Below, piece by piece: positions 2,732-61,740 of a stretch of 64,000 nt of DNA. The notes below the pieces were generated by a model that made no database searches, had not been told where the DNA came from, and saw only the letters and a program-made list of their open reading frames with translations. The translations under genes and the position numbers were made by a program. This DNA is from a virus (lineage: Duplodnaviria > Heunggongvirae > Uroviricota > Caudoviricetes > Schitoviridae), in the IMG/VR virus record IMGVR_UViG_2645727700_000001, positions 1 to 64,000 of that record, one strand, 5' to 3'. How positions within the stretch are numbered: the stretch's first letter is position 1; every line of letters begins with the position of its first letter.

Positions 2732-2749
2732 TACTTACTTAAGTAAGTA
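2732..2749. promoter_or_regulatory. palindrome element TACTTACTTAAGTAAGTA, 9 bp upstream of the endolysin start
   Basis: 18-bp perfect palindrome. Confidence 0.5.
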
Positions 2750-2757
2750 AACAAGGA

Positions 2758-3291
2758 GTGTTTATGAAGATTATTACAATTACTGCCGGGCACAGTAATA
2801 CTGACCCTGGTGCAGTAAATGGAAAGCGTACAGAGGCGGAGATTGCTGCTGATATGCGTAACATGGTTGCTCACTACTTAAAGGCTGCAGGTGTGACTAT
2901 CCGTACTGATGGTACTGGTCAAACCAACTTGCCTTTACGTACTGCAATCACATTGGCCAAAGGTGCACATGCTGCAGTTGAGTTCCACTGTAATGCAGGG
3001 CCAGCCTCGGCTCGCGGTGTTGAAGCACTGTCACAAGCAAAGGACAAGGTACTGTCACAGAAGCTTTGTGGTGCAATCAATTCAGTATTGGGCATCCCGC
3101 TTCGTGGGGACAAAGGTTGGAAACCTGAGAACTCTGGCCAGCATACTCGCTTAGGTTATGTTCAGGCTGGTGGAATTGTTCTGGAACTATTCTTCATCTC
3201 AAACAACGCTGAATTGGCTTTGTGGGATGCTAAAAAATGGTTAGTAGCGAAAGCTGTAGCGGAGGTGTTAATTGCCGAAGCTCGTAGTTAA
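2758..3291 (+). CDS. N-acetylmuramoyl-L-alanine amidase (Amidase_3 family) endolysin
   Basis: N-terminal ITAGHSNTDPGAV matches the Amidase_3 motif xDxGHGGxDxGA; RBS AAGGAG 8 nt upstream; followed by spanin genes. Confidence 0.75.
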   Translation: MFMKIITITAGHSNTDPGAVNGKRTEAEIAADMRNMVAHYLKAAGVTIRTDGTGQTNLPLRTAITLAKGAHAAVEFHCNAGPASARGVEALSQAKDKVLSQKLCGAINSVLGIPLRGDKGWKPENSGQHTRLGYVQAGGIVLELFFISNNAELALWDAKKWLVAKAVAEVLIAEARS

Positions 3292-3745
3292 CGCTATTTG
3301 CTTTGTATTCAAGCACTTTTGGGCCTTCCTGAGTGCTTGGTTCTTTATCCTGTTATTGGTCAATGACTATCGACTGACTCAGGTAAAGCAAGAGTACAAA
3401 GATCATATCGAAACAACCGAATTTGCCATTAAGGATATGAACATCAAGTGGCAAACCAAAATGAACACTGCAGAGAAGGAATTTAATGAAAAAGTCGCTC
3501 AGCTTAATGCTGATAACGCTGTCCTCATTGATCGTGCTAACGGGTTGTCAGAGCAACTCAGTAAAGCTCAATCCAAATGGGTTACAGCTTCCAGCGAGTC
3601 CAAAACTGAGTACACCAATACCCTCAGTAACGTATTCAAACAGTGCGTCGCAGAATATAAAGACCTGGCAGTCAAAGCTGATGGACACGCACTTGATGCG
3701 ATAAGGTTAAAGCAAGCTTGGCCAACAACCGATGAACCTCCTTAA
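3272..3745 (+). CDS. i-spanin (Rz-like): N-terminal TM helix plus coiled-coil
   Basis: N-terminal hydrophobic segment FWAFLSAWFFILLLV followed by a charged coiled-coil region; overlaps the endolysin 3' end; contains an embedded lipoprotein ORF. Confidence 0.55.
   Translation: MPKLVVNAICFVFKHFWAFLSAWFFILLLVNDYRLTQVKQEYKDHIETTEFAIKDMNIKWQTKMNTAEKEFNEKVAQLNADNAVLIDRANGLSEQLSKAQSKWVTASSESKTEYTNTLSNVFKQCVAEYKDLAVKADGHALDAIRLKQAWPTTDEPP
3486..3704 (+). CDS. o-spanin (Rz1-like outer-membrane lipoprotein) embedded in another frame of the i-spanin gene
   Basis: Signal peptide with lipobox LTGC, proline-rich mature region (PASPKLSTPIP); wholly embedded in 3272..3745 in a different frame, the classic Rz/Rz1 arrangement. 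Confidence 0.55.
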   Translation: MKKSLSLMLITLSSLIVLTGCQSNSVKLNPNGLQLPASPKLSTPIPSVTYSNSASQNIKTWQSKLMDTHLMR

Positions 3746-4002
3746 AGGAGGTTCTGTTGTTCTGGGAGGCTATAAAAGGCTTCAAATGATTTAGGTTTGG
3801 TGGATGGTCCACCTTGTATAACAATAAGTAAATTCAGGATTGTATGTACTCTGACATACTCGTCATGTACAGAGATACGTCTTAGCCCATCTACCTTAGG
3901 GGCACTTTCAATTAATGAGTACAGCTTGGTTGTGTACTCATTAACAGTCTTATGAAGCCCTTTGGCTTCAATTTCTTTTGTTAGATCTTCAAATGATCGC
4001 AT
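3742..4002 (-). CDS. hypothetical protein
   Basis: 86-aa ORF convergent with the lysis cassette. Confidence 0.35.
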   Translation of the reverse strand: MRSFEDLTKEIEAKGLHKTVNEYTTKLYSLIESAPKVDGLRRISVHDEYVRVHTILNLLIVIQGGPSTKPKSFEAFYSLPEQQNLL

Positions 4003-4303
4003 GATGCACCAGATAGAATAAAAGCCCCATATAGGAGCTTTTATTGTGGTACATTACGAGTGCCTTAGCAATAAGGCTCAAGGCGACCCGTAATGGTTAG
4101 ACATTACCATAGACCTTGGAGTGTCTACGATGAACCGTGTACTCATCGTTGTCGTTACGTTGGTATTACTACTGATCAGTCAGGCAGTTTACTAACATAA
4201 CGGGGTGGGGTAGTTACAGCTACCTCACCTTCTCCAAGTAAATATAGAACAATATACCGCACAAATCAATATAACTATTTATTCTAATCTGTGTGGGTGG
4301 GGG

Positions 4304-6338: not shown

Positions 6339-6521
6339 TTAAGTCCCTATAAGTGAGATTTGAATAATTAAGATGAACGCGATAATAGTTAGGCAGATTT
6401 GCCAACTGTATTTGTTGAGGATTTTCAATACAGTGCCACGTATGGCCTTGTTAGAAATTCCGAAGATAAGTGAAGCTAAAAGTGCGAGCACGAATAACCA
6501 TTTAATTGCCAATCCGAGCAT
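6339..6521 (-). CDS. small two-TM membrane protein immediately upstream of the SPFH gene (NfeD-like partner?)
   Basis: 60-aa ORF with two hydrophobic helices; 3-bp gap to the SPFH gene. Confidence 0.4.
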   Translation of the reverse strand: MLGLAIKWLFVLALLASLIFGISNKAIRGTVLKILNKYSWQICLTIIAFILIIQISLIGT

Positions 6522-6560
6522 TAATAACCCTCGCCCATGAGCAAACTCCTTTTAATTATC

Positions 6561-6578
6561 TACTTACTTAAGTAAGTA
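6561..6578. promoter_or_regulatory. palindrome element TACTTACTTAAGTAAGTA upstream of minus-strand gene 6339..6521
   Basis: 18-bp perfect palindrome. Confidence 0.5.
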
Positions 6579-6626
6579 AATAGGGTTAATAAAAAATGCT
6601 AGTGTGGTGCACTAACATTGGTGAGA

Positions 6627-6975: not shown

Positions 6976-7623
6976 TTACTTTTGTGTATTGAGTTGCTTA
7001 ATAATCATTTGAGACCATGGTTCGTACGCAGAGATCTCATTTAGTAAGTCCTCTGGTGCAGACCATTTTTGATCTTGTGTTTCATCTGTTTCTGCAATTA
7101 GTTTGGTATCAACTACAACGTTAACCCACAAACCAATATGTACAGCAGATACAGGGTCATTTAGTACAGCTAAAGCTAACTGAACGCCTGAAAGATCTGG
7201 TGTAAGGAAGTAGCCAATTTCTTCGCTCAATTCACGTGTAATTGAAGCTTCGAGAGTTGCTACGGCATTAATATTGCCTTCGTCATCCAGCACCACATCC
7301 GCAATGTCAGTATGACCGCCAACGCCAATGCTACGAAGGGCTGCAAGGCCTTTCTCACCGCCGTTTGTACCGCGAGAGTATGAAAGGTACTTACCATCTT
7401 CATTCTGAATGGTTACATACCCCAAGATTTGCGGGAAAGCATGGGCGATGTCATAGTTCAAGAGGCTCTTGTCAGAGGCATCCACAACACTGCGGTTGAG
7501 AAAGTGGTAATTGTTAGCAAAAATCTTCGCTAAGTTAACTGGATAAATACCAGGTGTTTCCGGGTCAATGTGCGAGCACTTAAGTAATGCATCTAATGCT
7601 ACGCATAAAACTGCAGGTTTCAT
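6976..7623 (-). CDS. hypothetical protein
   Basis: 215-aa ORF; palindrome element about 50 bp upstream. Confidence 0.45.
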   Translation of the reverse strand: MKPAVLCVALDALLKCSHIDPETPGIYPVNLAKIFANNYHFLNRSVVDASDKSLLNYDIAHAFPQILGYVTIQNEDGKYLSYSRGTNGGEKGLAALRSIGVGGHTDIADVVLDDEGNINAVATLEASITRELSEEIGYFLTPDLSGVQLALAVLNDPVSAVHIGLWVNVVVDTKLIAETDETQDQKWSAPEDLLNEISAYEPWSQMIIKQLNTQK

Positions 7624-7665
7624 TGGTTTCTCCTATGCGGAAAGAATTGTATGTCTAAAGTATCT

Positions 7666-7688
7666 ATTTACTCAAGTAAGTAAGTAAA
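7666..7688. promoter_or_regulatory. degenerate palindrome element (TTACTCAAGTAAGTAAGTAA) upstream of minus gene 6976..7623
   Basis: imperfect copy of the family. Confidence 0.4.
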
Positions 7689-8020: not shown

Positions 8021-8050
8021 CTTACTTGCTTACTTAATTACTTACTTGAT
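8021..8050. repeat. direct array of CTTACTT half-sites (cttacttgcttacttaattacttacttga) upstream of parA
   Basis: three direct half-site copies. Confidence 0.4.
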
Positions 8051-8062
8051 TAAATAGGTCTC

Positions 8063-8080
8063 ACAGAGAGACCGTAAAAA
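8063..8080. promoter_or_regulatory. dyad element GGTCTCAcagAGAGACC upstream of parA (putative operator), related to the downstream tandem array
   Basis: Imperfect inverted repeat 8 bp upstream of the parA start; same half-site as the 9596-9805 repeats. Confidence 0.5.
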
Positions 8081-8087
8081 TATAAAT

Positions 8088-8702
8088 ATGAAAACAGTGG
8101 TAATTGCATCCCGAAAGGGTGGGTCTGGAAAGACCACAAATGCGCGTAACTTTGCTGTTGCTTTGATAAAGCGTGGCAAGCGTGTTCTACTAATTGATAC
8201 TGACCTTCAAGGTACTCTATCAAAATGGTGGAATCGCCGTACTGTTGAAGACTTAGACTTATTAGTAGTGCCCTACAGCCAAATTAAAGAGGCTCAAGCT
8301 AGTGCACTACGTGCGGGGTATGACTATCTAATTATTGATACACCGCCGGACTCTAATGAGGCAATCGAAGGTACTGTCAGTATTGCTGACTTTATCTTGG
8401 TTCCTTGCAAAGCCAGTCCGGATGACATCGAAGCTGTTGTGGAAACGCATAAGCTGATTCAGAACGCTGGCAAAGACTTTACGTTTATTGTGAATGAGGC
8501 TAAGCCAAATACAAGCTTACTGACATTGGCATTAGAAACACTGTCACAGCTTGGGCCAATAGCACCAACACAATACAACTACATCTCACATCCTACATCT
8601 GCAGTGTCAGGCTCAACTGTAATTGATACAGAGCCAAGCTCTAAAGCTGCAGAAGATGTAGTCAAACTCACTAATTATGTACTCAGTCGCGTCGGAGAGT
8701 AA
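8088..8702 (+). CDS. parA: ParA/Soj-family partition ATPase (small, type Ib-like)
   Basis: Deviant Walker A KGGSGKTT and the LLIDTDLQGT motif (ParA D-x-D-P-Q-G signature); 204 aa without an N-terminal HTH. Confidence 0.8.
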   Translation: MKTVVIASRKGGSGKTTNARNFAVALIKRGKRVLLIDTDLQGTLSKWWNRRTVEDLDLLVVPYSQIKEAQASALRAGYDYLIIDTPPDSNEAIEGTVSIADFILVPCKASPDDIEAVVETHKLIQNAGKDFTFIVNEAKPNTSLLTLALETLSQLGPIAPTQYNYISHPTSAVSGSTVIDTEPSSKAAEDVVKLTNYVLSRVGE

Positions 8703-8704
8703 CA

Positions 8705-8950
8705 ATGGGCAAAGCACCTTTATCATTAGACAGTCTTAAACAGGTTGCTGAGCAATCTGCGCCTGCTCAAACTTCTGGCCAACCGGATGTGGTAAAATCA
8801 GATGCACCACAGGTTACAAAGCAGTTATCTGTTAAAGTAACCTTACCTGTGTATGAGCGTTTGCGTAAAGCTGCTTATACGCTTGAAATGTCGCATCAGG
8901 ACATTGGTTCGGATGCTGTTGCGGAATGGCTAACGAAAAATGGATTCTAA
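8705..8950 (+). CDS. small protein downstream of parA (candidate ParG/ParB-like centromere-binding partner)
   Basis: 81-aa ORF, 3 bp after parA, overlaps the next gene; position typical for a type Ib partner. Confidence 0.45.
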   Translation: MGKAPLSLDSLKQVAEQSAPAQTSGQPDVVKSDAPQVTKQLSVKVTLPVYERLRKAAYTLEMSHQDIGSDAVAEWLTKNGF

Positions 8951-9596
8951 TTTAGACGAACTTAAAGCACAGACTCAGTTCTTTCACCTATTTAAAGCCA
9001 TGTACGATTCAGGTGACGTGGCTCAAATGGGTTCACACGCGTTTAACGTGTATTGCTATATAAAGTCATGTGTTAATTACGAACGTCCAGATGCATTTCC
9101 GTCAATCGAGACGATCTGTAAAGCAACTGGCGTTTCTAGGGCTAATGTATTCAGATGTATTCCTGTCTTAGTAGAGATGGGCTACCTCACAAAGAATACA
9201 TCGGGTAGACATACAATCTACAGAGTGTGTGAGAGGATACCCATGTTAGATGAAAACGGCGATGTACAGGCTACAGCATCTTGGGAATACATCCCTAAAT
9301 ACGCTGTAAAAGCTGTATCAGAACTTAAAGAATTGATTCAATCATCAGGTGATGTTAATGCAGCTCGCTACATTCACATCGAACACTTACAAGTTATCGT
9401 ATCCAATATTGAATCTGGCGGCGTACAAAACATTGTAGCCGGGGACAATATTGATAATAGTACTACCAATGCTATTCATGTCACGCGTGAAAGCCAGACA
9501 CTTGAAGATCATTTAAATGACCTGGCACAGCAGGGCGATGGTTCTACTGCAGCTAAAATAAAGCGCGGTATTAAGAAGAAAACTTCAACTGGATAG
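8940..9596 (+). CDS. winged-helix/HTH DNA-binding protein (candidate Rep initiator or centromere-binding protein)
   Basis: HTH-like segment ICKATGVSRANVFRCIPVLVEMGYL; stop codon abuts the first of seven dyad repeats. Confidence 0.5.
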   Translation: MDSNLDELKAQTQFFHLFKAMYDSGDVAQMGSHAFNVYCYIKSCVNYERPDAFPSIETICKATGVSRANVFRCIPVLVEMGYLTKNTSGRHTIYRVCERIPMLDENGDVQATASWEYIPKYAVKAVSELKELIQSSGDVNAARYIHIEHLQVIVSNIESGGVQNIVAGDNIDNSTTNAIHVTRESQTLEDHLNDLAQQGDGSTAAKIKRGIKKKTSTG

Positions 9597-9805
9597 GTCT
9601 CATGGTGAGACCTTTTCTTTTTCTATTAGTCTCACAGTGAGACTGATGCATTTTTGATTGGTCTCACTGTGATACCTATTGATTTATAAAAATAGGTCTC
9701 AGTATGATACCTATAAGTAGAGTCTAGTCTCAGTGTGAGACTGAGTACCCTTAAAAGGGTCTCTATGTGAGACTAATTAAGCCTTAATAGGTCTCACTGT
9801 GATAC
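9596..9805. repeat. array of seven about 17-bp dyad repeats RGTCTCA-N3-TGAKACY spaced about 30-33 bp apart (putative iterons or partition centromere)
   Basis: Copies near 9596, 9628, 9659, 9696, 9726, 9762, 9789; 6-7 bp stems with 3-nt spacers; the first copy is followed by TTTTCTTTTTC. Confidence 0.7.
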
Positions 9806-9918
9806 CCTAAAAAGAACTCTTTAGATTCTAAATTTAAAAAGATCTTTTTATGGTCTAGAACGGTTAAAATCTGTGGATAAAAATACCTACTTATCCACAA
9901 AATGCAGGAAATCTTAAA

Positions 9919-10150: not shown

Positions 10151-10192
10151 AATTGGTCTGAAAAACCCTAGGAGCGAAGGCTTTTAGGGTTT
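10151..10192 (+). terminator. hairpin AAACCCTA...TAGGGTTT followed by TTTTCTTT
   Basis: stem-loop plus T-run after ORF 9919..10104. Confidence 0.5.
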
Positions 10193-10488
10193 TTCTTTAT
10201 GTATCGCAGTTAACATAATGTGCGTTATGCGAAATGTAATTACACAATTATCCACAATACTTTTTGAAAACAACAAGTTATGAATTCAAAAACTTTTTTA
10301 TGAAAACTATACTTATCCACAGTTGGAACATTTTGCCAATCAACGTGAATACCAAGCTTTAATTTGGCACTCACTATGCGTTGTAAACAGATTTTTATAG
10401 TACGAAGCTGAATGGCCACTGGTACACTTACGAGCACGTTCAGCAGCCGAAGGACTTAATACAATTGGTTTACCGCAGAGTTTACAGC

Positions 10489-13755: not shown

Positions 13756-13980
13756 TCATCCACGGTAGTTGCGCTGGGCATACTGGCGTAGGACGTTGTG
13801 TTTAATAATCTGGTTTAGTTTGGTGGCGTATTTGATAGCGTCTTGCTTATCATAAATTACACCCCCACCTAGTTTGGCCCATCCCTTACGGCCTTTGATT
13901 TCAACAACATGCAGTTCGGCATTACCTACAATGATGTTGTCGGTTGTGTACTTGTATTTACTCGGATCTCGGAAGTACAT
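13756..13980 (-). CDS. hypothetical protein
   Basis: 74-aa ORF; palindrome element about 50 bp upstream. Confidence 0.4.
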   Translation of the reverse strand: MYFRDPSKYKYTTDNIIVGNAELHVVEIKGRKGWAKLGGGVIYDKQDAIKYATKLNQIIKHNVLRQYAQRNYRG

Positions 13981-14013: not shown

Positions 14014-14044
14014 TCATAGTTTTACTTATTTACTTACTCAAGTA
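14014..14044. promoter_or_regulatory. palindrome-family element (TTACTTATTTACTTACTCAAGTAAGTAAGTAA) upstream of minus gene 13756..13980
   Basis: extended imperfect palindrome. Confidence 0.45.
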
Positions 14045-14077
14045 AGTAAGTAAATAAAGTTTTTAAATGTTCAAAGA

Positions 14078-14456: not shown

Positions 14457-14543
14457 ATTCCGAGTGATATTGCTACGTTAGGGATGTTGCGTCACGACAA
14501 CCTAACGAAGCCGATATTAAGCTAAATTAAACAGTTATGCAAT

Positions 14544-14567
14544 ACTTACTTGCTTAAGTAAGTATTT
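14544..14567. promoter_or_regulatory. palindrome-family element with 10-bp arms ATACTTACTT/AAGTAAGTAT and 4-nt spacer; overlaps the DNAP stop codon
   Basis: perfect 10-bp inverted repeat. Confidence 0.45.
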
Positions 14568-17202
14568 AACTGTAATAAGCTCTGTGCCCTTCAATGCATG
14601 TCTTCTTAATGGTTTGAGCGTCAGCATTGTTTGGCAATGTGATCTCATTGGCCCATGAAGGATGGAAGATGTCGAGAGCAGCTCCAAGTTTTACCTTGTC
14701 ATGCTGGATCTCTGGCAATTCTTGCCATGACATACACTCGATAAGGTTCTTGTTTGCCCAAGTTACAATCTCTAAATCATCACGGATGATGAGATAGATT
14801 GCATCATGGATAAGTGCTACAGGGAAAATGTCCTGACGATATGGAGAGTTCCATACGCGGTTCATAAACTCTACAGCAGCTCGGTTGTTCAGCATTCCGT
14901 ATGACTGACCTAATGCATTACCTGCAGTACGTCCCTCTGCCTCAGCCTCTTTCAAAGTCTTAGAGTTACCCAAGATTGATTGCTTAAGCAGTGGTGTACG
15001 TACACGTAATCCGAAGGCTACCTCAACATAACCAGTCTTACAGGCTTTCTTAAGCTTTTCAGCTACCCAAGCATCTGAAACTTTGTACATGTCGTGGTAT
15101 GACTTCTCAATCTGTTTAGCCACTCCCGGAGCGAAACCACAGTTCTTAACAAGAGTTGTCCACGTTCCCTGGTACGTCAATGCGAAGGTTGGTGCCTTAG
15201 ATTTTTGACGCAATTCAGGGTACTTCTTCTTAATCGAGTTAACGATAAATACTCGCTCTTTTGTGTCAGTCGTACTTGCGTACGCTTCCACAATGTCAGG
15301 CATCTGTTCAGGGAAGTAATAGAATGCACGTAGACAGTGACCGTCATATCCCTCAAGGTAAACCTTAAGTTTGTTCGGGTCTTTTGTGGTTAATGCAGAG
15401 ATGTAGTCTTCAAGCGAGTTGAAGTCGGCACCCCCGAATAGGAAGCCCTTAGGTGGTCTGAAACATGTCTTAACTGGTTTACCAAACTTAGAACCAGAAG
15501 GTAAATTCTGAAGGTTTGGACCAGATGAAGACAATCGACCGGAGACTGTTCCGCCTAAGTTGAAGTTCCCATGTAGCCAAGCAGTTCCATCAGCTTTAAG
15601 TACTGCCCCTTCAAAGGCCGGTACGAACGAACTGATGATCTTGTCTACCTTAGCCAAGTCATGCAAAGCATTGAGGAGTTCAATTTTAGTTGGATCATCT
15701 GTATGGTTTAGCAGCTTCTCTAATACGTCTGCACCCGTAGCAGGTTCTTTGGTTTTGGTACGGTCTAGTACAGGTAATGTCATTACATTGTAAAGCAGTA
15801 TGCCCAACTGTTTTGGACTGCCCGGGTTGAACTTCATGTCACAGAAATCCTCAACGGTCTTCTGTTTAATGTGCTCACCGTTGTACTTAACCACAGCATC
15901 CAATTGCATACGTTTAAGAGTCAAATCTACCCATTGAGACTTCTCAATTACAGCAAGGCATTCCTCCTGTTCTGCAACAAGGGTTCGCTTAAGATTCTGT
16001 ACCTCATCAGCGTCCATAGGCATCCCAATAAGCTCCATCTGGATGATGACCTTAAGGGTTGGTAGGAACTGCTCTTTATACAGCTTCTCTTGCTGATCTC
16101 GAACCATGATTGGGTAATACTTTTCGTATACATACCAAGTGGATAAGCAGTCGACTAGGTTGTAACGAAGCAGGTCGTCATAAGGAATTTTACGAATGTC
16201 AGCAATATCAGACTGTGCCCAATTCCCTGCAAATTCATGTGCATTATCCTTTAAAGATAGGAAATTGCCTGCTGCAGAGTTGGTGGCCAGATAAATGATG
16301 AGCTTCGTATCGTCCATGTTGCGCGTGAGGACATCTAAACCATGAAGTAGACCTTCACGATCTAGCGGATCTCGCATCCATAAACTGTAAATGAGTACCT
16401 TGATGTCATAGGCTGCATTATGGAAAACCAACTTACCTTTGTACGATTCAAGGAAGCGTCTCAGTAGCTTTTTAACTTCTGGATTGAGCTTTCTTGAGCA
16501 GTGGTCTGGGTTCATTGGATTTGCGTTCTTGGTGATTTCCACGGGGAATGCCATCCCTTCGTGTTTACTCCAAGCGAATGCACATGTACCTAATCCAGCT
16601 TCATAGAACTTCAAGCTAAAGGTCTCTGTATCACAGGTCAGGACAGGGTATTGGTGTAATCGATTCAAAGCCCATTCAATTTTTTGAAGATTGTCTGGGT
16701 AGTCCTCGTACTCAATAATCCCTTGTCCAAGTGCTGCGTATGTGCCATTTACAATGTCAGCCAGTGTTTGTACAGATAGATCTAACTTCTCGACTAGATT
16801 AGGGTTGTAGGTTAATGCAGACCAGTTAGTACCTAACGTCACTTGGAGGTATTCAAAGTCCTTAATCCCCACATTTAGGCGATAACCATAATGCGGTTCG
16901 GCCTTTGTCTGTTTAGCCAACACTTTGAAATAAGGCGCGTCAGCACAGTACAGGTACTTAATGCCCTGTTCAGCCAATACAGGTAACAGCTTCTCAAGGT
17001 ATTGCTTACACTGAGTTGCTGTGACTTTGTTGTTTGGGCCATATTCCAATGTGAAGGCAATGACACGTTCCCTAGAAATCCCTTGAACTTCTAACGGTTT
17101 AACGTAGTTGTTTAAGATTTCCTGCTCATTGAATGAGGATGGTTTGATTAGGATAGCTACATCGTAACTATCTTGCGGTTCTGCAAATAATAAATGGCGC
17201 AT
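14566..17202 (-). CDS. DNA polymerase, family A (PolI-like) with 3'-5' exonuclease domain
   Basis: Exo I motif LTCDTETFSL; Pol motif A GGADFNSLEDY; motif B RQKSKAPTFALTYQG (R-x3-K-x7-YG); motif C ALIHDAIYL; 878 aa, close to the roughly 876-aa N4 DNAP (gp39) as recalled. Confidence 0.9.
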   Translation of the reverse strand: MRHLLFAEPQDSYDVAILIKPSSFNEQEILNNYVKPLEVQGISRERVIAFTLEYGPNNKVTATQCKQYLEKLLPVLAEQGIKYLYCADAPYFKVLAKQTKAEPHYGYRLNVGIKDFEYLQVTLGTNWSALTYNPNLVEKLDLSVQTLADIVNGTYAALGQGIIEYEDYPDNLQKIEWALNRLHQYPVLTCDTETFSLKFYEAGLGTCAFAWSKHEGMAFPVEITKNANPMNPDHCSRKLNPEVKKLLRRFLESYKGKLVFHNAAYDIKVLIYSLWMRDPLDREGLLHGLDVLTRNMDDTKLIIYLATNSAAGNFLSLKDNAHEFAGNWAQSDIADIRKIPYDDLLRYNLVDCLSTWYVYEKYYPIMVRDQQEKLYKEQFLPTLKVIIQMELIGMPMDADEVQNLKRTLVAEQEECLAVIEKSQWVDLTLKRMQLDAVVKYNGEHIKQKTVEDFCDMKFNPGSPKQLGILLYNVMTLPVLDRTKTKEPATGADVLEKLLNHTDDPTKIELLNALHDLAKVDKIISSFVPAFEGAVLKADGTAWLHGNFNLGGTVSGRLSSSGPNLQNLPSGSKFGKPVKTCFRPPKGFLFGGADFNSLEDYISALTTKDPNKLKVYLEGYDGHCLRAFYYFPEQMPDIVEAYASTTDTKERVFIVNSIKKKYPELRQKSKAPTFALTYQGTWTTLVKNCGFAPGVAKQIEKSYHDMYKVSDAWVAEKLKKACKTGYVEVAFGLRVRTPLLKQSILGNSKTLKEAEAEGRTAGNALGQSYGMLNNRAAVEFMNRVWNSPYRQDIFPVALIHDAIYLIIRDDLEIVTWANKNLIECMSWQELPEIQHDKVKLGAALDIFHPSWANEITLPNNADAQTIKKTCIEGHRAYYS

Positions 17203-18964: not shown

Positions 18965-20107
18965 TTATTTAAGTGTGAAATGAATCACTTTTCCAAAAGG
19001 GGCACGGAATTTAGGGTTGTCGTAGATGCACCAGAACACAGGTCTGTTGTCCACCTTCTTCAAGTACTGCATATCCCTGTGCCAAATGTGACCATCAGTA
19101 AGGATGATCAAAGCTTTAGATTTAGATTCTTTAAAGGTTTGGAATACTGGACGGATTAACGTTCCTCCTCCCCCCACAAAAGACAATTTAGTAAGGTCTC
19201 GGAATCCCTTAACGACTGAGACTTTCTGCACTTCATGGTCGAACTGAATGACCTCAATTAGCTCAGGTGAGTATTGTTTGAGAACCGAATACATCTCAGA
19301 GCAAAACTGTGTGCATACTTTGTCTGTGACTGAACCTGAAACGTCCACTGCAAAAGAGACTTGTGACAAGTTCCCTTCACTGACTAACGTAGGAAAATAA
19401 AGGCCATGCTGTAGGTACTTACGATTGAACTTTTTAGTGCTGTAATCACTTTTACTCATGGATTTCAGCAGGCGTGCCAATACCTTTCTCCAATCCACTT
19501 TCGGATTGAGCATGTCTTCCAGGTAACGTTTAATTTCACCCGGAATGTGTTTGTCACCCTTCTCCCCTTTCATCTCAGCGTAGAGCTGTGCACGGACTAC
19601 AATGTCAGTGATCTCTTTTGCTTTCTGTTTGTCTGCGGGAGATGCATCGCCGTCAATTGGCTCCATGTCGCATTCAAAGTCGTCATTTGGTGGATCATCT
19701 GGGAGACGGTCGTACACTTGCTCAGATGACAGACCATCGAACTTTTTGTTGTACAGCACCCAATTTGGGACTTTAAAACCGGCCTCGGCTAAGAATCCGT
19801 TAATGACGTAATCACATGCTTTATTCCACTTTTTGAAGTTACGATCACCAACACGAATCATGTGCATATAGGCAACGTGTAGTGCTTCATGTGCCAGTAC
19901 AAATACACGTTCATCAATGGGTAAAGCTGCAAAGAACTTAGGGTTAATGATCAACTGTTTACCATTTGTGGCTGCAGTCTTTGTGTGCGCCTCTGATACG
20001 ATCAGCTCTAATGAGAAACAGATCGTACTGATAAACGTGGTTTCAGGTTTCTGGATTAATCCAATCTTTGCTCGGCTAATTGCCTTAGCTAATTCATCTT
20101 CGGTCAT
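18965..20107 (-). CDS. HExxH metallopeptidase-like / von Willebrand factor A (vWA) domain protein
   Basis: N-terminal LAHEALHVAYMH (HExxH); C-terminal MIDAS motif AVDVSGSVTD (DxSxS). Confidence 0.7.
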   Translation of the reverse strand: MTEDELAKAISRAKIGLIQKPETTFISTICFSLELIVSEAHTKTAATNGKQLIINPKFFAALPIDERVFVLAHEALHVAYMHMIRVGDRNFKKWNKACDYVINGFLAEAGFKVPNWVLYNKKFDGLSSEQVYDRLPDDPPNDDFECDMEPIDGDASPADKQKAKEITDIVVRAQLYAEMKGEKGDKHIPGEIKRYLEDMLNPKVDWRKVLARLLKSMSKSDYSTKKFNRKYLQHGLYFPTLVSEGNLSQVSFAVDVSGSVTDKVCTQFCSEMYSVLKQYSPELIEVIQFDHEVQKVSVVKGFRDLTKLSFVGGGGTLIRPVFQTFKESKSKALIILTDGHIWHRDMQYLKKVDNRPVFWCIYDNPKFRAPFGKVIHFTLK

Positions 20108-20120: not shown

Positions 20121-20163
20121 TACTTACTCACTTAAGTAAGTAAATTAATACTTAAGTAATTAA
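20121..20163. promoter_or_regulatory. palindrome-family elements upstream of the vWA gene
   Basis: TACTTACTCACTTAAGTAAGTAA followed by TTAATACTTAAGTAATTAA. Confidence 0.45.
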
Positions 20164-23759: not shown

Positions 23760-23788
23760 TTTAAGTTTACCTTTAATTACTTAATTGC

Positions 23789-23808
23789 TTACTTACTTAA
23801 GTAAGTAA
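23789..23808. promoter_or_regulatory. 20-bp perfect palindrome TTACTTACTTAAGTAAGTAA upstream of the AAA+ ATPase gene
   Basis: perfect palindrome 30 bp upstream of the start. Confidence 0.5.
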
Positions 23809-23954: not shown

Positions 23955-24377
23955 TTAGCTTGAATGCCTTGCGCCGTTAACATTTGGTGAATCCTGAGAA
24001 TTTGTTGTTGTAAAGTCAGTTAGTTCCGGTGGTGGTGACTTCATTCCAGTAAAAGACTGTGTGAAGCACGCCACACGTTGTTCTATGGTGAGCTGGTTAA
24101 ACAGTTCTTGATAAGACTGTGTGCTCATTAGTTGCTTTCGCAACTGTTGGACATTTGTGATGCCCAAGGTCTTGAGTTGCTCTAACATGGCATCCTGATC
24201 TGGGGTCTTTCGACTGCTGATCTTAACGAGTCCTACATCTGCTAGAACGTTTTTAACCGTAGTTACTGAGACGTTGTAGTAGCTGGCAAGATCGTTAGGG
24301 TGCGTATTTCCATGTTTGAATGCCGCAATAATCTCCTGCCTTTGGGCAAAAGATAGCTTACGAAAGGTCATAATCAA
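23955..24377 (-). CDS. HTH DNA-binding protein (putative transcriptional regulator)
   Basis: HTH-like LASYYNVSVTTVKNVLADVGL. Confidence 0.5.
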   Translation of the reverse strand: MIMTFRKLSFAQRQEIIAAFKHGNTHPNDLASYYNVSVTTVKNVLADVGLVKISSRKTPDQDAMLEQLKTLGITNVQQLRKQLMSTQSYQELFNQLTIEQRVACFTQSFTGMKSPPPELTDFTTTNSQDSPNVNGARHSS

Positions 24378-24576: not shown

Positions 24577-24588
24577 TTACTTAAGTAA
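24577..24588. promoter_or_regulatory. short palindrome TTACTTAAGTAA between the RNAPII catalytic gene and the HTH gene
   Basis: 12-bp palindrome with flanking GTAAGTAG. Confidence 0.35.
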
Positions 24589-45618: not shown

Positions 45619-45626
45619 ATTTACTT

Positions 45627-45644
45627 ACTTACTTAAGTAAGTAT
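45627..45644. promoter_or_regulatory. palindrome TACTTACTTAAGTAAGTA between the SLT gene and the vRNAP gene
   Basis: 18-bp perfect palindrome. Confidence 0.5.
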
Positions 45645-45712
45645 AATTAAACCCAAGAAAGGCAATGCGTAGCAGTACCATTGCCTTTTTCCATTTTAGA
45701 GGAGACATAGAC

Positions 45713-48700
45713 ATGGAACGTCTAGTAGCTAACCCTTTCATGGAGAAAGAGGAAAAAGTAGCGGCAGCTACAGCATCAAAAGTGGTACGTCAGGGTAACT
45801 TCGGTATCACTGGCAACCCACTACATAACCGTATTGATTCAGCCCGACAATCACTACAACGCTTCGATTCATTCCTTGAAGCAGACCGCAAGAAGCGCGA
45901 ACAAGAAGCCAATTACACCACTCCAAGCGATAACCTACGCAGATCCAGCCTTACTGAGCGTGCCCCTTCGATTGCACGTGTGTACGGCTCTCAGGCATGG
46001 GCAACAGTTAAGAAGGGTGTAGCGCAAGCTGCTGGTGGTCTAAGTGCAGGGTGGGCCGATCAGGAACGCATGAACATCCCGCGTGATGTGCAGGATGCCT
46101 ACAATCGTTATAAGCAAACTGGTTTAGCAACTAACCCAGAGGATGTGAAGTTACTTCATAGTCCGGCTTATCGTCAGTTCCAGATGGGTAATATTCAAGG
46201 TGAGAAGAAACCAATTGAAGGTAAGACTTTCCTTGAACAGCTTGAAGGTGCTGCAGCTTATGACAAAGAGGCTCAACGCCGTGTAGGTGATATGCGTAAT
46301 GGCATTCCTGACATGTTTGATTCTCATAAGCGCGTCAATCCGTTACTACAGGATGAGCGTGCTCAGGCTATGCAGCGTAACCGTGACAAGTACAACATCG
46401 GTGAACAACGTGCAAAGGCAGACGCATTAGAAGCTCAAGGCGAAACAGGCAAAGCTAAGGTTGTACGTGCGCTGGCAAACTTCCAGCAATTAGCACAGGA
46501 TACTATTGTTGCGGCACAACATCCGACAGCTTTAGGTCAAGACTTGGCAGCTATCGCACCATACGCAGTAACGGGTATGGCTGGTGCTACTGCAGGTGCA
46601 GGGTTACAAACTCAGGAAGATCATATCAACTCGAAGAAGCAGTACACGGAACGTACTGGTATTGCTATTCCTTCTGAGCTAGATGCAGCCAAAATGAAGG
46701 GTATGGCCGGTCTCAATTTTGCAGCAAACTTTGCTGAAAACATGGTAGTAGGTAATGCCCTCAAAGGTGGCGTTACTAACATGGGTAAAGCCTATGCTGC
46801 CAATGCTGCTGCAGGGTACACGCAGTCTAAGATTCAGACCGGTGCAGGTGCTTTACACTTTACCAATGAGACCGATCAAGAAGCGATTGAAGCTGCAGCA
46901 CTTGGCGGTGCTTTGGCGGGTGGTATTGCTGCACCTCATGCGACTTTACAGGCTGCAGGTAAAGCGGCTGATGTTGTAAAGGAAAAAGCATTTAAGGATG
47001 TTCGTGAGCAGTCAGCTCAACAACGTGCAACTTTTGAGGAGAATATTGACCCTACATCTACAAACTTCAACCCAAGTGAAGCCATTAACAAACAGACCCA
47101 GATTTTTGGCAATAAGGACGCATCTAAAGATGATTTAGATTTGGCACGTACAAATGCTAAGGATGCATTGCAAGCGGCTCATGACCGCTATGATGCGTTA
47201 GAGCGTAATCAACAATCTATCTCTGAGCGTTTAGAGGATGTTAACCAGTATCGACAAGAACTGGCTGACACCGAAGCAGCTTTACAAGCTGACCCAAATA
47301 ACGCTGCACTGTCAGAGTTCTACGATGGCTTGCAGGACTATATCAAAGAAGCAGAAGCCCAGCTCACTCCTGAATACCTTCAAAGTGCGTCAGACGCGCT
47401 GAAAGCAGCGTCTAAGCATAAGGACGATGCAATTGCAGCGTATGAGGCATTCAATGGCTTAAACGAAGTTAAGACCGACACTAAACAGTCTGCAGATGTG
47501 ACAACTAAGCATACTGAAACCTTGACCAACGAGAAGGCATCTGACGCTGAAAAAGCCAAAGCTGCTGAGCATGTCACCAACTATCCAATGATGTATAAGC
47601 CTGAGGATCTCCTACAGATTGCCGATGACTTATCTAATCATTTAACAGATGCTCAACGTACAACATTGCGTGAACTTTCAGATCTTCGTGTACAAGAGCA
47701 CATGACTAAAGGGCTTGATGGTGTATCTGCAGACATCAAGAAAGGAAGTCAAAACTATAAGAGTCTTGAGAGTTACTTTGTTGATCGTGATCGTGCAATC
47801 CGTTTAAAGGATGATTCACGCTTACGCCAGTTAAGTGATCAGTTCGACCGCTTACAGGCAAGCTTTGAGGTTAAGGATCGCCTTGCAAGCAAATTGTTCG
47901 ACCGTTCAAAGGAGACGGGGGGCAAGTACCAGGTAATCCGTACCGAAGCCGGGACATGGAAAATCAATACTGGTAAGTTGATGTCTGAGGCAGCAATCAC
48001 TAAAAACGGTGGTTTCACAATCCATAAAGGTTCTGAGAAACTGGTTAACAGCATTAAGACTGATGCGGCGAATGTAAGTAAGGCACATGGCTTATTCCAG
48101 AAGCTAGACTCTGCAGACTTCCGTTCAGTTGTCAAATCTGAGATTAAAGCTGAGACCGGTTCAACTTTACCTAAACAACCTGAACCGGTCTCAGTTCCTA
48201 CGCCGTTGGCAGTGCCAAAAGGGGAAGCTGTGGTCCCGAACTTGAAGGATGTAACTCCGGAAGTTCGTAAGGCGGAACGTGGTAAAGCATTTGAATCTCG
48301 TGATCTGGTTAAAGCTCACCTTAAGCAAAAAGTATCTCAAGATGGAACGAATCCTTTAATTGATATTCCTGACTTCCGTAGTGCCTATGACAAGGCTGAG
48401 GACAAACGTGCGTTCATTGATAGTCAAGTTAAGAAGCCTTTGAGTGATAAACAACACACTCAGGTACAACACTTTAATGAGTTCACCAAAGGTTACGATT
48501 CAGCCCTAACCAAGTTGTTCACGCCTAAGACCGGTGATAAGGCAAAGTACAACTATCAGGATATGGCTCAGTTCTTGGCAGCAGACGGTAAGTTACCTGA
48601 AAACACACGCACTGCTTTGGCTGTAGGCGCGTATCAGTGGCTTATTGAGAATGGCGCAACCACTCGTACCACTGATGCTGATATTGCCCGTTTACTGCAT

Positions 48701-55881: not shown

Positions 55882-55910
55882 AAGGGAGCATTAGCTCCCT
55901 TCTTTTTTCT
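55882..55910. terminator. hairpin AAGGGAGC-ATTA-GCTCCCTT followed by CTTTTTTC; between the convergent vRNAP gene and the acidic-protein block
   Basis: perfect 8-bp stem plus T-run. Confidence 0.7.
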
Positions 55911-57862: not shown

Positions 57863-58591
57863 TTAGTCGTCAAATAAGCCTGAGGTTGCAGCTTTAGGTT
57901 TAGCAGGTGCACCAGCTTTACCAGCAGCAGCGCCTTTAGGTTTTTTACCTTTGGTACGGTCTTTGACTTCGCCGTCCCAACGACCTTTCCACACATCAAT
58001 GAATGCTGCTTCTTCGGCTTTAGCACGAATTTCGGCAGTAGTTTTGTTGTCAGAAGCACGGAACACTTTGTCTACGTTGTTTTCTTCACGAGTTTCCTCT
58101 GTGTCAACGTATTTGCCATCAACCTTCTCTTGTTTGAAGACTTTTTGTTGGATAATTGCCAACTTCACTTCTTTATCAAGCAGGTCTACCAGTACATCTA
58201 CCTTAGTAGGGACTTCTTGTTTGGCATCTTTGTTGTACACTTTCACCATCTTAGATTCAGTGTCCATTTCAGAGAGTGCACGTTTAGCGGCTAAGCAGCA
58301 GATTGCATCCATGTGTAAGAAGCCTGCAAGGTACTTCTTCTCGCCTGAGTTTTTGTCGACGTAGTACGCCTTACCTTCTTTATTTGATACATAGAAAGTT
58401 TCTTTGTATTCGTCTTCGCCAATACCAAAAGTACAGTTGATGCCTACAGCACCAGAGTCAGCGATTTGGATGTACGCCATTTTGATAACTGCGTTATATA
58501 CGCCAGATGCAAAGAGTTTGAATTTACCGCCAACACTGTCGGTTTCGTTTTTAATGTTAGAGTCGTAAGATAAGCCAGCTAAAACACTCAT
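57863..58591 (-). CDS. putative single-stranded DNA-binding protein (N4 gp45-like) with acidic C-terminal tail ...SGLFDD
   Basis: 242 aa; position next to the ATPase and primase-like genes as in N4; Lys/Ala-rich flexible C-terminus ending LFDD. Confidence 0.5.
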   Translation of the reverse strand: MSVLAGLSYDSNIKNETDSVGGKFKLFASGVYNAVIKMAYIQIADSGAVGINCTFGIGEDEYKETFYVSNKEGKAYYVDKNSGEKKYLAGFLHMDAICCLAAKRALSEMDTESKMVKVYNKDAKQEVPTKVDVLVDLLDKEVKLAIIQQKVFKQEKVDGKYVDTEETREENNVDKVFRASDNKTTAEIRAKAEEAAFIDVWKGRWDGEVKDRTKGKKPKGAAAGKAGAPAKPKAATSGLFDD

Positions 58592-58595: not shown

Positions 58596-58636
58596 ATTTC
58601 CTTGTCTTGAGTTAAGTAAGTAAGTAGATAAGTAAA
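58596..58636. repeat. direct array of AAGTAAGTA half-sites upstream of the SSB-like gene
   Basis: gttaagtaagtaagtagataagtaaataagtaat. Confidence 0.4.
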
Positions 58637-58712
58637 TAAGTAATTGCGTAGCGAGAGACTACAGAGGAACTAATAGAATGTCTATTAGTTCCATGGGTTG
58701 ATTGCGTAGTAT

Positions 58713-59459: not shown

Positions 59460-59471
59460 TTCATATTCCTT

Positions 59472-59493
59472 TTTACTTACTTAAGTAAGTAAA
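59472..59493. promoter_or_regulatory. 22-bp perfect palindrome TTTACTTACTTAAGTAAGTAAA upstream of the ATPase gene
   Basis: perfect palindrome 13 bp upstream of the start. Confidence 0.5.
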
Positions 59494-59533
59494 TCTATTT
59501 ATTTCATCCGTTCCAGTACGCAGCGCGTACCCC

Positions 59534-61690
59534 TTATACATCTTTCTTAAGTAGCTCATTTGCTACAGTTTTAAAGATAGTTGCTGACAGCTCGGCTTCA
59601 CTCAATTTGCCCGGTAACTTGTCATTCAAGGCAGATACGCGGGTAGTAATTGTGTTGAAGTCATGGCCAGCATCACAGAGCACACGTGCAAACTTATGGA
59701 GTTGGACATTACGATTCCCGTCACCTGTGTTGTTAATTACCCAACGTTCAAGGTTGTCGAGAGAAGTTTGATCTTGGAACTTGCGCTCACGCTCCTCATT
59801 CTTGGAGGTCTTTGGAATGAAAGGCAGTACATCAAACAACTGGCCATCAGTTACGATTGCATCAGTTGGATTAGACAGCCATTTCTTACAGCGATGTGCT
59901 GCAGACGCATCCCCCTCAAATGGGAGTGATTCAAGTACGTTCATGTAGAACTCTTTGTAATCAGCAGCATCAAGTTTCAAAACATAATTAGTAGGCAATA
60001 TGATTCGGAAGCGGTTGGTTTCAGGCGTACTACGCTTGGTTGTGTAGTAGATTGCCTTGTAGTCCTTCAACAGCATCATTGCGGTTTTAAGCTGACATGT
60101 GCCATCAATGTCTAAGACAATTGTATTAAATCCTTCCTCAGCATTTTCCTCCTTGCGATAGCCACCCTTTAAGTGATGGTTTACCCAGTGGAACGCTGGT
60201 CCAGTGTATACACGTGGCAATTTGCTGAATGGAACACGAACGTTCTCATAACCCTCAGTCATGTCTGTACTGAAAGCCAAGATCATTTCATCAAGGTTGG
60301 TTTCATCTAGGGATTCCCCACGAAGGAACTGCACGCCGTCAGTAAAGATCTTCTTAATGATCACGTTGTTCTTGTAGCCCCATGCTGCAGCCATAAGGAG
60401 GATTTCCTCTTTAACTGCACGGGAGCCAGCAAATGCCGGACATTCTGTATCAAGGTCTGCTAATGTCAGTTCATTAGGGGAGTGTGCCAGGTGTTTTGCT
60501 ACCTTCACATAATTACGCTCTGGACGTAATAGCTCCTCACATGCCTTACCTGACGCTTCAACAAGCTTGATAGCATTCTCCAAGTGACCCATTGTGATCT
60601 CCGGAGACATATCCATAAATGCGTACGCACCTGCAAGTTTGAGCACTTTGAAGTAACGGTGATCCATTTCACTTTTGCGAATGGCTTCCGCTTCACTCAA
60701 GGTACGAGAGAGCTTTTCACACTGTAGTTTGTACTCTAAGAGCACTAAACATACTGGTTTAGGTAAACGAATGTTTTTACCAATGTTTACCATATCTGCA
60801 AGCTGCTCAAACTTCATAGAAAGATCTTCTAAGAAGTCCTCATTGCTTGTGTTAAAGAGTTGATCGTATAACTGATCTGGACTTAAACCATCTTGCTTAG
60901 TAGCTTGACGGGTAAATCCAAATAGGCAACGGCGGGCATATCCCATTTCCAACAGTTCCATGAGGAGCTGCTCGGTTTTGCCACCATCAAGTAATTTCTG
61001 AGGTGAGCCAAACAGTAATAGGTTAGCCGGGGTTGCACCATCAATCTTCTCAAAGCGCACATTGTCTGCAGTAGACTTGACCAGTTTGTCTTTTACTAAA
61101 CCTTTGTCGTAAAGCTCAAGGTAAGTGGTCAATGGTTCAAGAGTTGCTTGGAGGTTTACACCAATTTCATCGACCTGAAGGTTGCACGCACCCGCATTGG
61201 CCATCAACAATTTTTGACGCATTTGCTTAATGGCTGGGGATGTAGCTTCACTGAATGACATCATCAACGCGCCAAGAGAATTAAATTCCTTTTGGAGTTT
61301 GACAAGTTCATCATCTGGGTCGGTGCCATTACGTGTAGCAAGTTTAGTTGCCAATGTCACAAGGTTCTGATCGGCCAAGATAGGGAAGGTGTGCTCACGG
61401 AATGTTGTAAAGAAGCGATTCAATACTTCGCCTTCAATTACACCCGATGAGTGTCCTTTACCTGCACCTGACGGGGCCAGATTCATGGCGTACACATTAA
61501 TGGGAATGGAACTTTTACCCATGAATCCTGTGACACCTGCTCGCATTTGAGCAGCAACCATGCCCCAATAATACGCAACCAAGATTCGGAAGAATAAAGG
61601 ATCTGTATTTTGAGTTTTGGTTTGTAGCACTTTTACAAGTTTTTCTGAGGTCGGATGAAACTCCATATCCGACACAGCGCGTAAAGCCAT
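59534..61690 (-). CDS. putative DNA primase (N4 gp43-like)
   Basis: 718 aa; glycine-rich loop LAPSGAGKGHSSG; gene order DNAP ... primase-ATPase-SSB as in N4. Confidence 0.45.
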   Translation of the reverse strand: MALRAVSDMEFHPTSEKLVKVLQTKTQNTDPLFFRILVAYYWGMVAAQMRAGVTGFMGKSSIPINVYAMNLAPSGAGKGHSSGVIEGEVLNRFFTTFREHTFPILADQNLVTLATKLATRNGTDPDDELVKLQKEFNSLGALMMSFSEATSPAIKQMRQKLLMANAGACNLQVDEIGVNLQATLEPLTTYLELYDKGLVKDKLVKSTADNVRFEKIDGATPANLLLFGSPQKLLDGGKTEQLLMELLEMGYARRCLFGFTRQATKQDGLSPDQLYDQLFNTSNEDFLEDLSMKFEQLADMVNIGKNIRLPKPVCLVLLEYKLQCEKLSRTLSEAEAIRKSEMDHRYFKVLKLAGAYAFMDMSPEITMGHLENAIKLVEASGKACEELLRPERNYVKVAKHLAHSPNELTLADLDTECPAFAGSRAVKEEILLMAAAWGYKNNVIIKKIFTDGVQFLRGESLDETNLDEMILAFSTDMTEGYENVRVPFSKLPRVYTGPAFHWVNHHLKGGYRKEENAEEGFNTIVLDIDGTCQLKTAMMLLKDYKAIYYTTKRSTPETNRFRIILPTNYVLKLDAADYKEFYMNVLESLPFEGDASAAHRCKKWLSNPTDAIVTDGQLFDVLPFIPKTSKNEERERKFQDQTSLDNLERWVINNTGDGNRNVQLHKFARVLCDAGHDFNTITTRVSALNDKLPGKLSEAELSATIFKTVANELLKKDV

Positions 61691-61714
61691 TATGATTATC
61701 CTAATTTAAGTAAG

Positions 61715-61740
61715 TAATTAAGTAAGTAAAATTAAAGAAC
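61715..61740. repeat. two direct copies of TTAAGTAAGTAA upstream of the primase-like gene
   Basis: ttaagtaagtaattaagtaagtaa. Confidence 0.4.

Follow-up and report, generated by a model that had tools for sequence, protein, structure and literature searches.

What purpose could be served by a short sequence that recurs in front of about 20 genes of one phage genome, on both of its strands? The question is raised by a 64,000-nucleotide stretch of DNA (positions 1 to 64,000 of IMG/VR record IMGVR_UViG_2645727700_000001; hereafter the window), which protein-family searches identify as an N4-like phage (Schitoviridae) and in which a first reading of the letters, the original prediction, had picked out repeated TACTTAC/GTAAGTA half-sites. 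The major capsid protein (MCP) and the large subunit of the phage RNA polymerase RNAPII match NCBI proteins of Acinetobacter sp. A47 (74,273-bp contig) with 100% identity. No close relative of the window phage was found among GenBank phages, the nearest being Acinetobacter phage vB_IME_Ab2712 (Ab2712) with an MCP identity of 68%. In the clade to which these phages belong, the motif, an array of 4-nt units, is a real, conserved, and undescribed element, and the main new finding is comparative: the arrays occupy the same junctions in different phages, with a unit sequence that is specific to the lineage.

The 20-mer TTACTTACTTAAGTAAGTAA has 21 matches with at most three mismatches in the window, collapsing to approximately 17 sites, and none in shuffled sequences; perfect copies are limited to two, at 23789 and 59473. 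The 12-mer half TTACTTACTTAA is matched 38 times with at most one mismatch (0.45 expected) and the heptamer TACTTAC 56 times (8.95 expected). An independent array finder returned 19 arrays of TTAC, GTAA, TTAA, and GTAC units, all of them intergenic, which together with an imperfect palindrome at 29231–29264 give a total of 20 sites. Every palindromic or near-palindromic position in the original prediction was recovered within a few bases, and the direct arrays, placed there at 8021, 58596, and 61715, lie at 8022–8053, 58612–58643, and 61706–61729. The element had been described as a palindrome of 18–24 bp; its palindromic layout holds but a fixed dyad does not, as the true repeat unit is a tetranucleotide whose number and orientation vary. 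The majority of sites have the form (TTAC)n-TTAA-(GTAA)n with n = 1–3, and three to four are purely direct (8022, 58612, 61706, and most of 30048).

The regulatory appearance of the element, lying genome-wide before genes on both strands, was supported. The position upstream of start codons stood, with a measured gap to the start codon or ribosome-binding site of 7–40 nt in place of the proposed 10–100 bp; from the array center to the start codon the distance is 15–37 nt. The preceding stop codon is frequently touched, as had been noticed for three genes: that of the portal gene lies inside an array, and those of the MCP and DNA polymerase genes are directly adjacent to one. Sense-strand flanks of the arrays read acaagg, ataatt, gtagga, aaagga, and similar. 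Arrays are present in the early, middle, and late gene blocks, and both divergent junctions of the window carry them. None of the three convergent junctions does, and these hold canonical terminators consisting of a GC hairpin and a T-run (3734–3754, 10160–10195, and 55882–55901). Full-text literature searches for the motif sequence returned nothing relevant, and papers on Acinetobacter N4-like phages do not mention it, in agreement with the earlier impression that the motif is undescribed.

A search of related phages, as the original prediction had proposed, was made with relatives gathered via the RNAPII large subunit and MCP and with the full Ab2712 genome. Every relative gathered carries arrays, all intergenic and with approximately zero in shuffled sequences, and the MCPs of these array-bearing phages are 68–86% identical to that of the window. 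Arrays are absent from five more distant N4-like loci (L001, L003, L008, L020, and L024) and from Acinetobacter phage At2. Orthologous late junctions with arrays are those before the first late gene, before a small-terminase-like gene, before and after the portal gene, after the MCP gene, and before the gene of the virion RNA polymerase (vRNAP); outside the late block, arrays recur before and after the RNAPII large-subunit gene, before an ATPase gene, and before a DUF2201 gene. Approximately 13 positions are common to the window and Ab2712, which additionally has arrays before its single-stranded DNA-binding protein (SSB) and ParA genes. Junction statistics for Ab2712 were set aside as too noisy, given an unverified record and crude calls of open reading frames (ORFs). 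Matches in metagenomes lie almost all in unrelated microsatellite-like contexts, contig L128 being the one true relative, with the motif between two divergent gene starts.

While the junctions are shared, the unit is not. It is GTAA/TTAC in the window and four relatives (L188, L189, L190, and L195), the same units in reverse order in L187 (GTAAGTAAGTACTTACTTAC), GTGA/TCAC in L191 (MCP identity 83%), a mixture in L186 and L192, and GTAC/GTGC in Ab2712. The unit sequence is lineage-specific yet uniform across the sites of one genome, and such a switch in concert at all sites is expected from co-evolution with a reader encoded by the same genome. Among close relatives a site may keep its length while the internal units flip: before the small-terminase-like gene, the window and L189 differ by an internal 16-bp inversion. 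Some conserved sites in L191 and L192 are purely direct arrays, with conserved late sites of the direct GTRA type on the sense strand, and across phages the orientation is mixed, with a sense strand rich in GTRA at 20 sites and in TYAC at 14. Ahead of the small-terminase-like gene, the array is followed by TACAAT or TATAAT in five of five phages, and in L191 and L192 the order there is terminator, array, and ribosome-binding site.

Passive acquisition of a host repeat, which would be an alternative source of such copies, was not borne out. In 185,579 species genomes, a set that did not include the chromosome of strain A47 itself, the 18-mer core has only 23 single scattered matches in unrelated taxa and none in Acinetobacter. 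A scan of IMG/VR gave zero matches for the 20-mer and five single chance matches for a 16-mer. The arrays resemble repetitive extragenic palindromic (REP) sequences, bacterial interspersed mosaic elements, and phage RNase III sites in being repeated intergenic palindromes inside operons. REPs, however, are elements of the host chromosome, whereas the core is single-copy and sporadic in the species genomes, and RNase III sites need a duplex of approximately 20 bp, whereas most arrays offer only 8–12 bp.

Our favored reading, to which we give a probability of roughly 40%, is that the arrays form a genome-wide operator network for a clade-restricted regulator encoded by the phage. Their distribution is the one to be expected of such a network, with many copies of one phage-specific intergenic site across the replicon. 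In the N4 model, the early, middle, and late blocks are transcribed by three different polymerases (PMC4496689), and the presence of arrays in all three blocks makes it unlikely that they are the promoter of any one of these. Variable unit number and orientation, together with direct arrays, would be tolerated by a strand-blind reader of double-stranded DNA but not by a directional promoter or an RNA hairpin. The approximately 20 sites, located at transcription-unit boundaries, would be recognized by a sequence-specific regulator that binds the 4-bp units cooperatively, the units usually being in inverted repeat. At some sites the bound regulator would cover part of the −35/spacer region in host-type promoters; at several late sites the array lies at the −35 position beside conserved −10-like hexamers. 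At other sites, where it would sit past a stop codon and ahead of the following ribosome-binding site, the regulator may occlude initiation or block passing polymerases. The arrays of the middle sites directly adjoin the ribosome-binding site, and the regulator would serve there as a roadblock or occluder. A single factor could in this way gate early, middle, and late genes whichever of the three RNA polymerases transcribes them. What the sequences show is the set of sites with their positions, their conservation among relatives, the unit proper to each lineage, and the phyletic co-occurrence; the binding of a protein to the arrays, its identity, and the sign of the regulation, positive or negative, are what we infer. 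We also considered −10-like hexamers beside arrays as a general rule and rejected it: the sense side has them in 15 of 70 cases and the antisense side in 7 of 70, and they are convincing at a few late sites only.

Judged from its sequence and predicted fold, the most likely array-binding factor is a clade-restricted 138-aa protein with a probable tandem helix-turn-helix (HTH) structure, encoded on the minus strand at 23955–24371; the promoter region of this candidate also carries an array. An HTH protein at 23955–24377, which has 138 aa in the NCBI annotation, had been named from the start as one example of a possible regulator, and its HTH-like character is supported by a sequence pattern (...DLASYYNVSVTTVKNVL...), by an AlphaFold model with an N-terminal three-helix bundle (predicted local distance difference test, pLDDT, ∼85), and by weak fold matches, the best of which are bipartite HTH domains (Pax paired domain, CENP-B, and IstA). 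Remote homologs carry tandem HTH_7/23/28, CENP-B_N, and Mor domains; Pfam has no significant match. The family is tiny, with five representatives at E < 1e-10 among 1.84 billion proteins, and appears restricted to the array-bearing clade: among 50,697 phage records only Ab2712 has the protein, and At2 gives a partial match. At2 has neither arrays nor a full-length HTH protein, and it also lacks the ParA/RHH/Rep module described below. The putative recognition helix is identical in three phages sharing the unit of the window and different in L187, L186, and Ab2712, a comparison that leaves out L191. As an alternative reader, a ParG-like ribbon-helix-helix (RHH) protein was tried and rejected, as it adjoins a repeat family of its own and its ribbon residues are nearly alike in Ab2712 despite the different unit.

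Between the RNAPII large-subunit gene and the HTH gene lies a conserved structured leader of 239 nt (24378–24616, minus strand). The array lies within an outer GC stem, for which L188 has compensatory changes, and a sigma-70-like promoter, TTTACT-17-TAAAAT, has in its spacer a GC hairpin with a 3-nt loop and compensatory changes in L186 and L187. The leader, which also contains the invariant box ACTACTAAACCGATATACTAAAAGTA, may function as a regulatory RNA or as a complex promoter region.

Several observations weigh against an operator network read by this protein. The overall pLDDT of the model is 63 (three sequences), a low confidence, and the fold matches are not significant (E of at least 0.14). 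The differences in the recognition helix follow phylogeny and are no independent evidence, and the co-occurrence of arrays and HTH protein rests on three lineages only. A 4-bp period with a variable unit count is unusual for HTH operators and fits RHH proteins better. In the arrays of the window themselves, conservation is highest in the sense-upstream half, TACTTACTTRA (11 vs. 34 mismatches; better kept at 11 sites vs. 3), a bias that hints at some directionality and favors a promoter. Finally, a hairpin built from the phage's own unit follows the MCP gene in every relative (−17 to −24 kcal/mol), and the strength and conservation of these hairpins suggest an RNA-structural role for some of the sites at least.

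The better-kept half would be explained if the arrays were promoters of RNAPII, a T7-like heterodimeric polymerase, recognized either as an extruded hairpin or cruciform or as a T7-type sequence with the start near the TTAA/G center and the right arm as the start of the transcript. N4-like phages need many such promoters, and no other over-represented intergenic motif was found in the window. The middle promoters of LUZ7 are hairpins (PMC9163698), and the arrays can form stems of 8–15 pairs with 4-nt loops. Arrays also follow terminators, occupy divergent junctions and avoid convergent ones, and lie at a plausible leader length from the start codon, and promoters of phage polymerases typically have a sequence specific to the lineage. 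We nevertheless consider this explanation unlikely, as the early and late blocks contain arrays too, a palindrome would fire both ways, and the orientation is not tied to gene direction, as seen in the mixture of GTRA- and TYAC-rich sites and in the direct late arrays of L191 and L192. The hairpin of the window is AT-rich and weak whereas those of LUZ7 are GC-rich, and At2 has no arrays even though its RNAPII, 48% identical to that of the window, is as similar as the RNAPII of array-bearing Ab2712. A presumed likeness of CTTACTTAAG to the T3/T7 promoter core was not used as evidence. The post-MCP hairpins point in another direction, to intercistronic RNA structures that would terminate or pause transcription, mark processing, or stabilize mRNA ends and so set the expression of neighboring genes (high for MCP, low downstream). 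The contact of many arrays with the upstream stop codon agrees with this, as do G·U wobbles on the sense strand at several sites, the outer stem that encloses the post-RNAPII array in both the window and L188, and the 12-bp array hairpin that, with a trailing T-run, comes after the RNAPII large-subunit gene in L186 and L187; among the relatives, such a T-run was otherwise seen after the MCP of L192. The core RNA hairpin, on the other hand, is weak (−5.9 kcal/mol, a stem with two G–C pairs) and lacks a U-tract, direct arrays cannot fold (61695–61735 gives −2.1 kcal/mol, z = −1.25), and arrays are found between divergent starts, where no upstream transcript ends. Selection for a sense-strand RNA hairpin was rejected, the sense fold being more stable at 25 sites and the antisense fold at 16 (Wilcoxon P = 0.21). 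A purely structural role, moreover, would not need one shared sequence per genome. A general RNA role is therefore quite unlikely in our estimate, whereas a structural role at a subset of the sites is possible. The proposal of a bidirectional terminator, or of an ordinary intrinsic one, failed on the same weak hairpin without a U-tract and on the use of canonical terminators in place of arrays at convergent junctions; of all arrays, the terminator scan detected only the long palindrome at 29231–29264.

The rapid turnover of units suggests a further possibility, that the arrays are neutral or self-propagating repeats without a dedicated reader, whether spacer fill prone to slippage and template switching or recombination hot spots for module exchange. 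Quasi-palindromes are homogenized by template switching, a process that we count in favor of this explanation; unit number and orientation change fast from one close relative to another without altering the total length, and the gene products of the phage include an exonuclease and an annealing protein of Sak4-like type. Against neutrality stand the retention of a dozen or more junctions across phages with proteins only 35–70% identical, the genome-wide concerted switch of the unit, the strict exclusion from coding sequence and convergent junctions, and the existence of other N4-like phages of similar genome organization without arrays. We regard it as improbable.

The genes around the arrays have an N4-like layout, with approximately 95% of the window coding and no Rfam match within it. 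Early genes, RNAPII subunits, ATPase, helicase, and DNA polymerase run on the minus strand from 29630 down to 10240, the two RNAPII subunits being at 26514–27497 and 24617–25873; terminase, portal, MCP, and the vRNAP of 3,403 aa are on the plus strand at 29798–55876; and ribonucleotide reductase, exonuclease, primase, Sak4-like protein, and SSB occupy the minus strand from 63933 down to 56055. The ribonucleotide reductase fragment (63223–63933, minus) is 88% identical in amino acids to that of Ab2712, far above the 30–73% of the other shared proteins, which suggests a recent exchange of this gene. Sigma-70-like promoter matches, scanned in three 20-kb segments covering positions 1–60000, were at about half the shuffled level (20 vs. 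43, 17 vs. 36, and 14 vs. 33), indicating that host-type promoters are avoided.

Along the left part of the window, array CTACTTACTTAAGTAAGTAA at 2731–2750 lies between the stop of a tail-fiber-like gene (2728) and the start of the endolysin gene. The array at 6552–6579 is preceded, in minus-strand order, by a canonical terminator (6619–6595) and followed by a ribosome-binding site and the ATG of the gene at 6339–6521, and another at 7664–7687 is upstream of the gene at 6976–7623 (minus). The direct array of eight units at 8022–8053 (TTACTTGCTTACTTAATTACTTACTTGATTAA) occupies part of the gap between divergent genes ahead of the ParA-like gene and directly adjoins GGTCTCACAGAGAGACC, a sequence resembling an iteron. 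Upstream of the gene at 13756–13980 (minus), an extended palindrome at 14022–14053 has about 15 paired positions in the RNA fold; the array adjoining the DNA polymerase stop codon is at 14543–14569, and one at 20121–20143 precedes the DUF2201-type gene at 18965–20107 (minus). Upstream of the AAA ATPase gene (22740–23759, minus), the array at 23773–23808 includes a perfect 20-mer (23789–23808). The array inside the outer GC stem, at 24565–24592, comes just after the RNAPII large-subunit gene and about 20 nt upstream of the conserved sigma-70-like promoter preceding the HTH gene, and the large-subunit gene itself (minus) has an array upstream at 25902–25928. The imperfect palindrome at 29231–29264, of 30–34 bp and with the structure TACTTAC..CTCAATTGAG..GTAAGTA, is upstream of the early gene at 29002–29202 (minus), and the array at 29763–29786 is in the divergent gap between the early (minus) and late (plus) blocks.

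In the late block, a mostly direct TTAC array at 30048–30075, upstream of a 240-aa gene located before the large terminase, is followed directly by TACAAT, and the array at 33184–33215 is between the stop of the gene at 32467–33183 and the portal start. The array overlapping the portal stop codon (35432–35455) ends 12 nt before a small conserved ORF at 35468–35536 (plus; MAVQNVLLFCQSPKDGGRFTRM), located between the portal gene and the next gene and also found in L189, L190, L192, and L187; with this ORF, an apparent gap of 84 nt after the array shrinks to 12 nt. Directly after the MCP stop, the array and a second hairpin, GCAAGTAAGT..ACTTACTTGC, span 38263–38317 and have a joint fold of −19 kcal/mol. 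Upstream of the vRNAP gene, the array at 45621–45644 shares positions with a sigma-70-like TTTACT-16-TATAAT, and a leader hairpin resembling a terminator comes after it. In that leader (45642–45715, plus), TATAAT precedes the hairpin, AAGGCAATG..CATTGCCTT, which has a T-run; next come AGAGGAG, as ribosome-binding site, and the ATG at 45713. The hairpin, attenuator-like in appearance, is kept in L190 and L192. As the first in-frame ATG (45665) sits within the hairpin, vRNAP probably starts at 45713. The remaining sites precede minus-strand genes: the direct array at 58612–58643, of TTAC type on the sense strand, is upstream of the SSB gene (57863–58591), a perfect 20-mer at 59473–59492 is 13 nt upstream of the Sak4-like gene start, and two tandem copies of TTACTTACTTAA in sense orientation at 61706–61729 are upstream of the primase gene (59534–61690).

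Two other sequence patterns were considered as promoters. The box TAAACCAA(T/C)TAAAGGA stands directly before about eight early and middle start codons and is conserved in relatives, with minus-strand examples at 25876–25893, 27501–27518, 27885–27902, and 29206–29222. As a promoter box, TAAACCAA or AAACCAA was rejected, its occurrences in Ab2712 and At2 being mostly within coding sequence and on both strands; the word AAACCAA alone is common inside genes of these two phages. The box is probably an extended translation-initiation region. A GC hairpin, GAGCTTCGCTC, was discarded as a general middle promoter, having a single copy in the window, and GC hairpins with 3-nt loops number only two outside the early region. 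Within it, such hairpins at 27922–27938 and 28005–28019 (minus) are upstream of a 105-aa early gene (27564–27881) and resemble both the early hairpin promoters of N4 and LUZ7 and the tandem promoters from which LUZ7 expresses its cofactor Drc. By analogy, the 105-aa product may be the corresponding RNAPII cofactor.

By analogy, the closest counterparts of the arrays would be the stoperators of Cluster A mycobacteriophages and the operators of plasmid global regulators. Stoperators, as in phage L5, are 13-bp asymmetric sites, present in two to three dozen copies with one orientation relative to transcription, to which a temperate phage's immunity repressor binds. Both systems place one short phage-specific sequence in short intergenic gaps genome-wide, in both gene arms, with differences between related phages; the arrays differ in having 4-bp units, a mostly palindromic layout, and variable length and orientation, and in belonging to an N4-like phage with three polymerases. 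Plasmid counterparts are the OB sites of KorB (RK2), the heptad arrays of omega (inc18), and the tetramer boxes of ParG (TP228). They too are iterated or palindromic short-unit sites spread over a replicon, direct or inverted, variable in number, and located at promoters including that of the partition operon, and their replicons also have a ParA-type partition module. There, however, the period is 7–8 bp rather than 4 bp and the replicon is not a phage genome; in the window, the RHH and Rep proteins adjoin GGTCTCAC iterons, and the candidate reader of the arrays is the tandem-HTH protein. T7-group promoters, asymmetric 23-bp sequences in a single orientation with about 15–20 copies per genome, share with the arrays a conserved sequence at a similar copy number in front of genes that co-varies with phage lineage, whereas the arrays are symmetric or direct, variable in length, and independent of gene direction.

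Hairpin promoters of N4 and LUZ7 are likewise short-loop inverted repeats upstream of genes in an N4-like phage and could be extruded from supercoiled DNA. They are few, GC-rich, directional, confined to one temporal class, and without a 4-nt repeat, whereas the arrays are AT-rich, number about 20, occur in all temporal classes, and are sometimes not inverted. The early promoters of N4-type vRNAP have a stem of 5–7 bp, a loop of 3 nt, and 3–9 copies in the early region (PMC4496689, PMC9163698), in contrast to the 8–15 pairs, 4-nt loop, and about 20 genome-wide copies of the arrays. LUZ7 RNAPII middle promoters have a stem of at least 6 bp and a loop of 3–4 nt, are GC-rich, and occur in four copies at middle genes only (PMC9163698). 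Most palindromic copies of the arrays fit this stem and loop and the direct ones at 8022, 58612, and 61706 do not, and neither the GC content (25% in the stem in the window) nor the presence in early and late blocks agrees with it. A LUZ7-type start, at a G about 15 bp past the hairpin, would land within the ribosome-binding site at 2731 and 59473.

The phage also has a maintenance module of plasmid type at 8054–9809, consisting of a ParA-like gene (8088–8702), the ParG-like RHH gene (8705–8950; 81 aa), and a winged-helix Rep-like gene (8940–9596), followed by seven iterons ATAGGTCTCACnGTGAkACC at a spacing of about 32 nt (9593–9809), with an eighth copy upstream of ParA (8054–8076). The GGTCTCAC iterons are the repeat family next to the RHH protein and are distinct from the arrays. 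The module is present in Ab2712 and absent in At2, and related contigs of about 75 kb recur across many Acinetobacter isolate data sets, one having been deposited as plasmid NZ_CP110465.1, which suggests an N4-like phage-plasmid or a stable carrier state. The array-bearing clade is the one with this episome-like toolkit, the arrays and HTH protein co-occurring with the ParA/Rep module. A link between the array network and the module, with silencing during episomal carriage, is something that we only infer. Rather unlikely, in our estimate, is the full picture of a plasmid-like episomal N4-like lineage in Acinetobacter, equipped with ParA, ParG-like RHH, and Rep-like proteins and iterons, in which one tandem-HTH regulator and about 20 array operators would keep the three-polymerase cascade silent or timed.

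Outside N4 itself, the selection of middle and late transcription units in N4-like phages is largely unsolved. The authors of the LUZ7 study could not find middle promoters by sequence analysis (PMC9163698), and the N4 model still contains an unidentified factor that recognizes double-stranded DNA (PMC9163698, PMC4496689). The clade described here offers an element of about 20 copies, with a unit that has been switched between close relatives at fixed positions, and a short list of candidate readers; the switch makes specificity-swap designs simple, with the protein of one phage set against the array of another. Should the arrays form a global operator network with ties to the ParA/Rep module, the stable carriage of N4-like genomes in Acinetobacter isolates would be explained as well, which bears on phage therapy for A. 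baumannii. If true, the episomal picture would give a phage family that has long been considered strictly lytic a global switch of the stoperator or KorB type.

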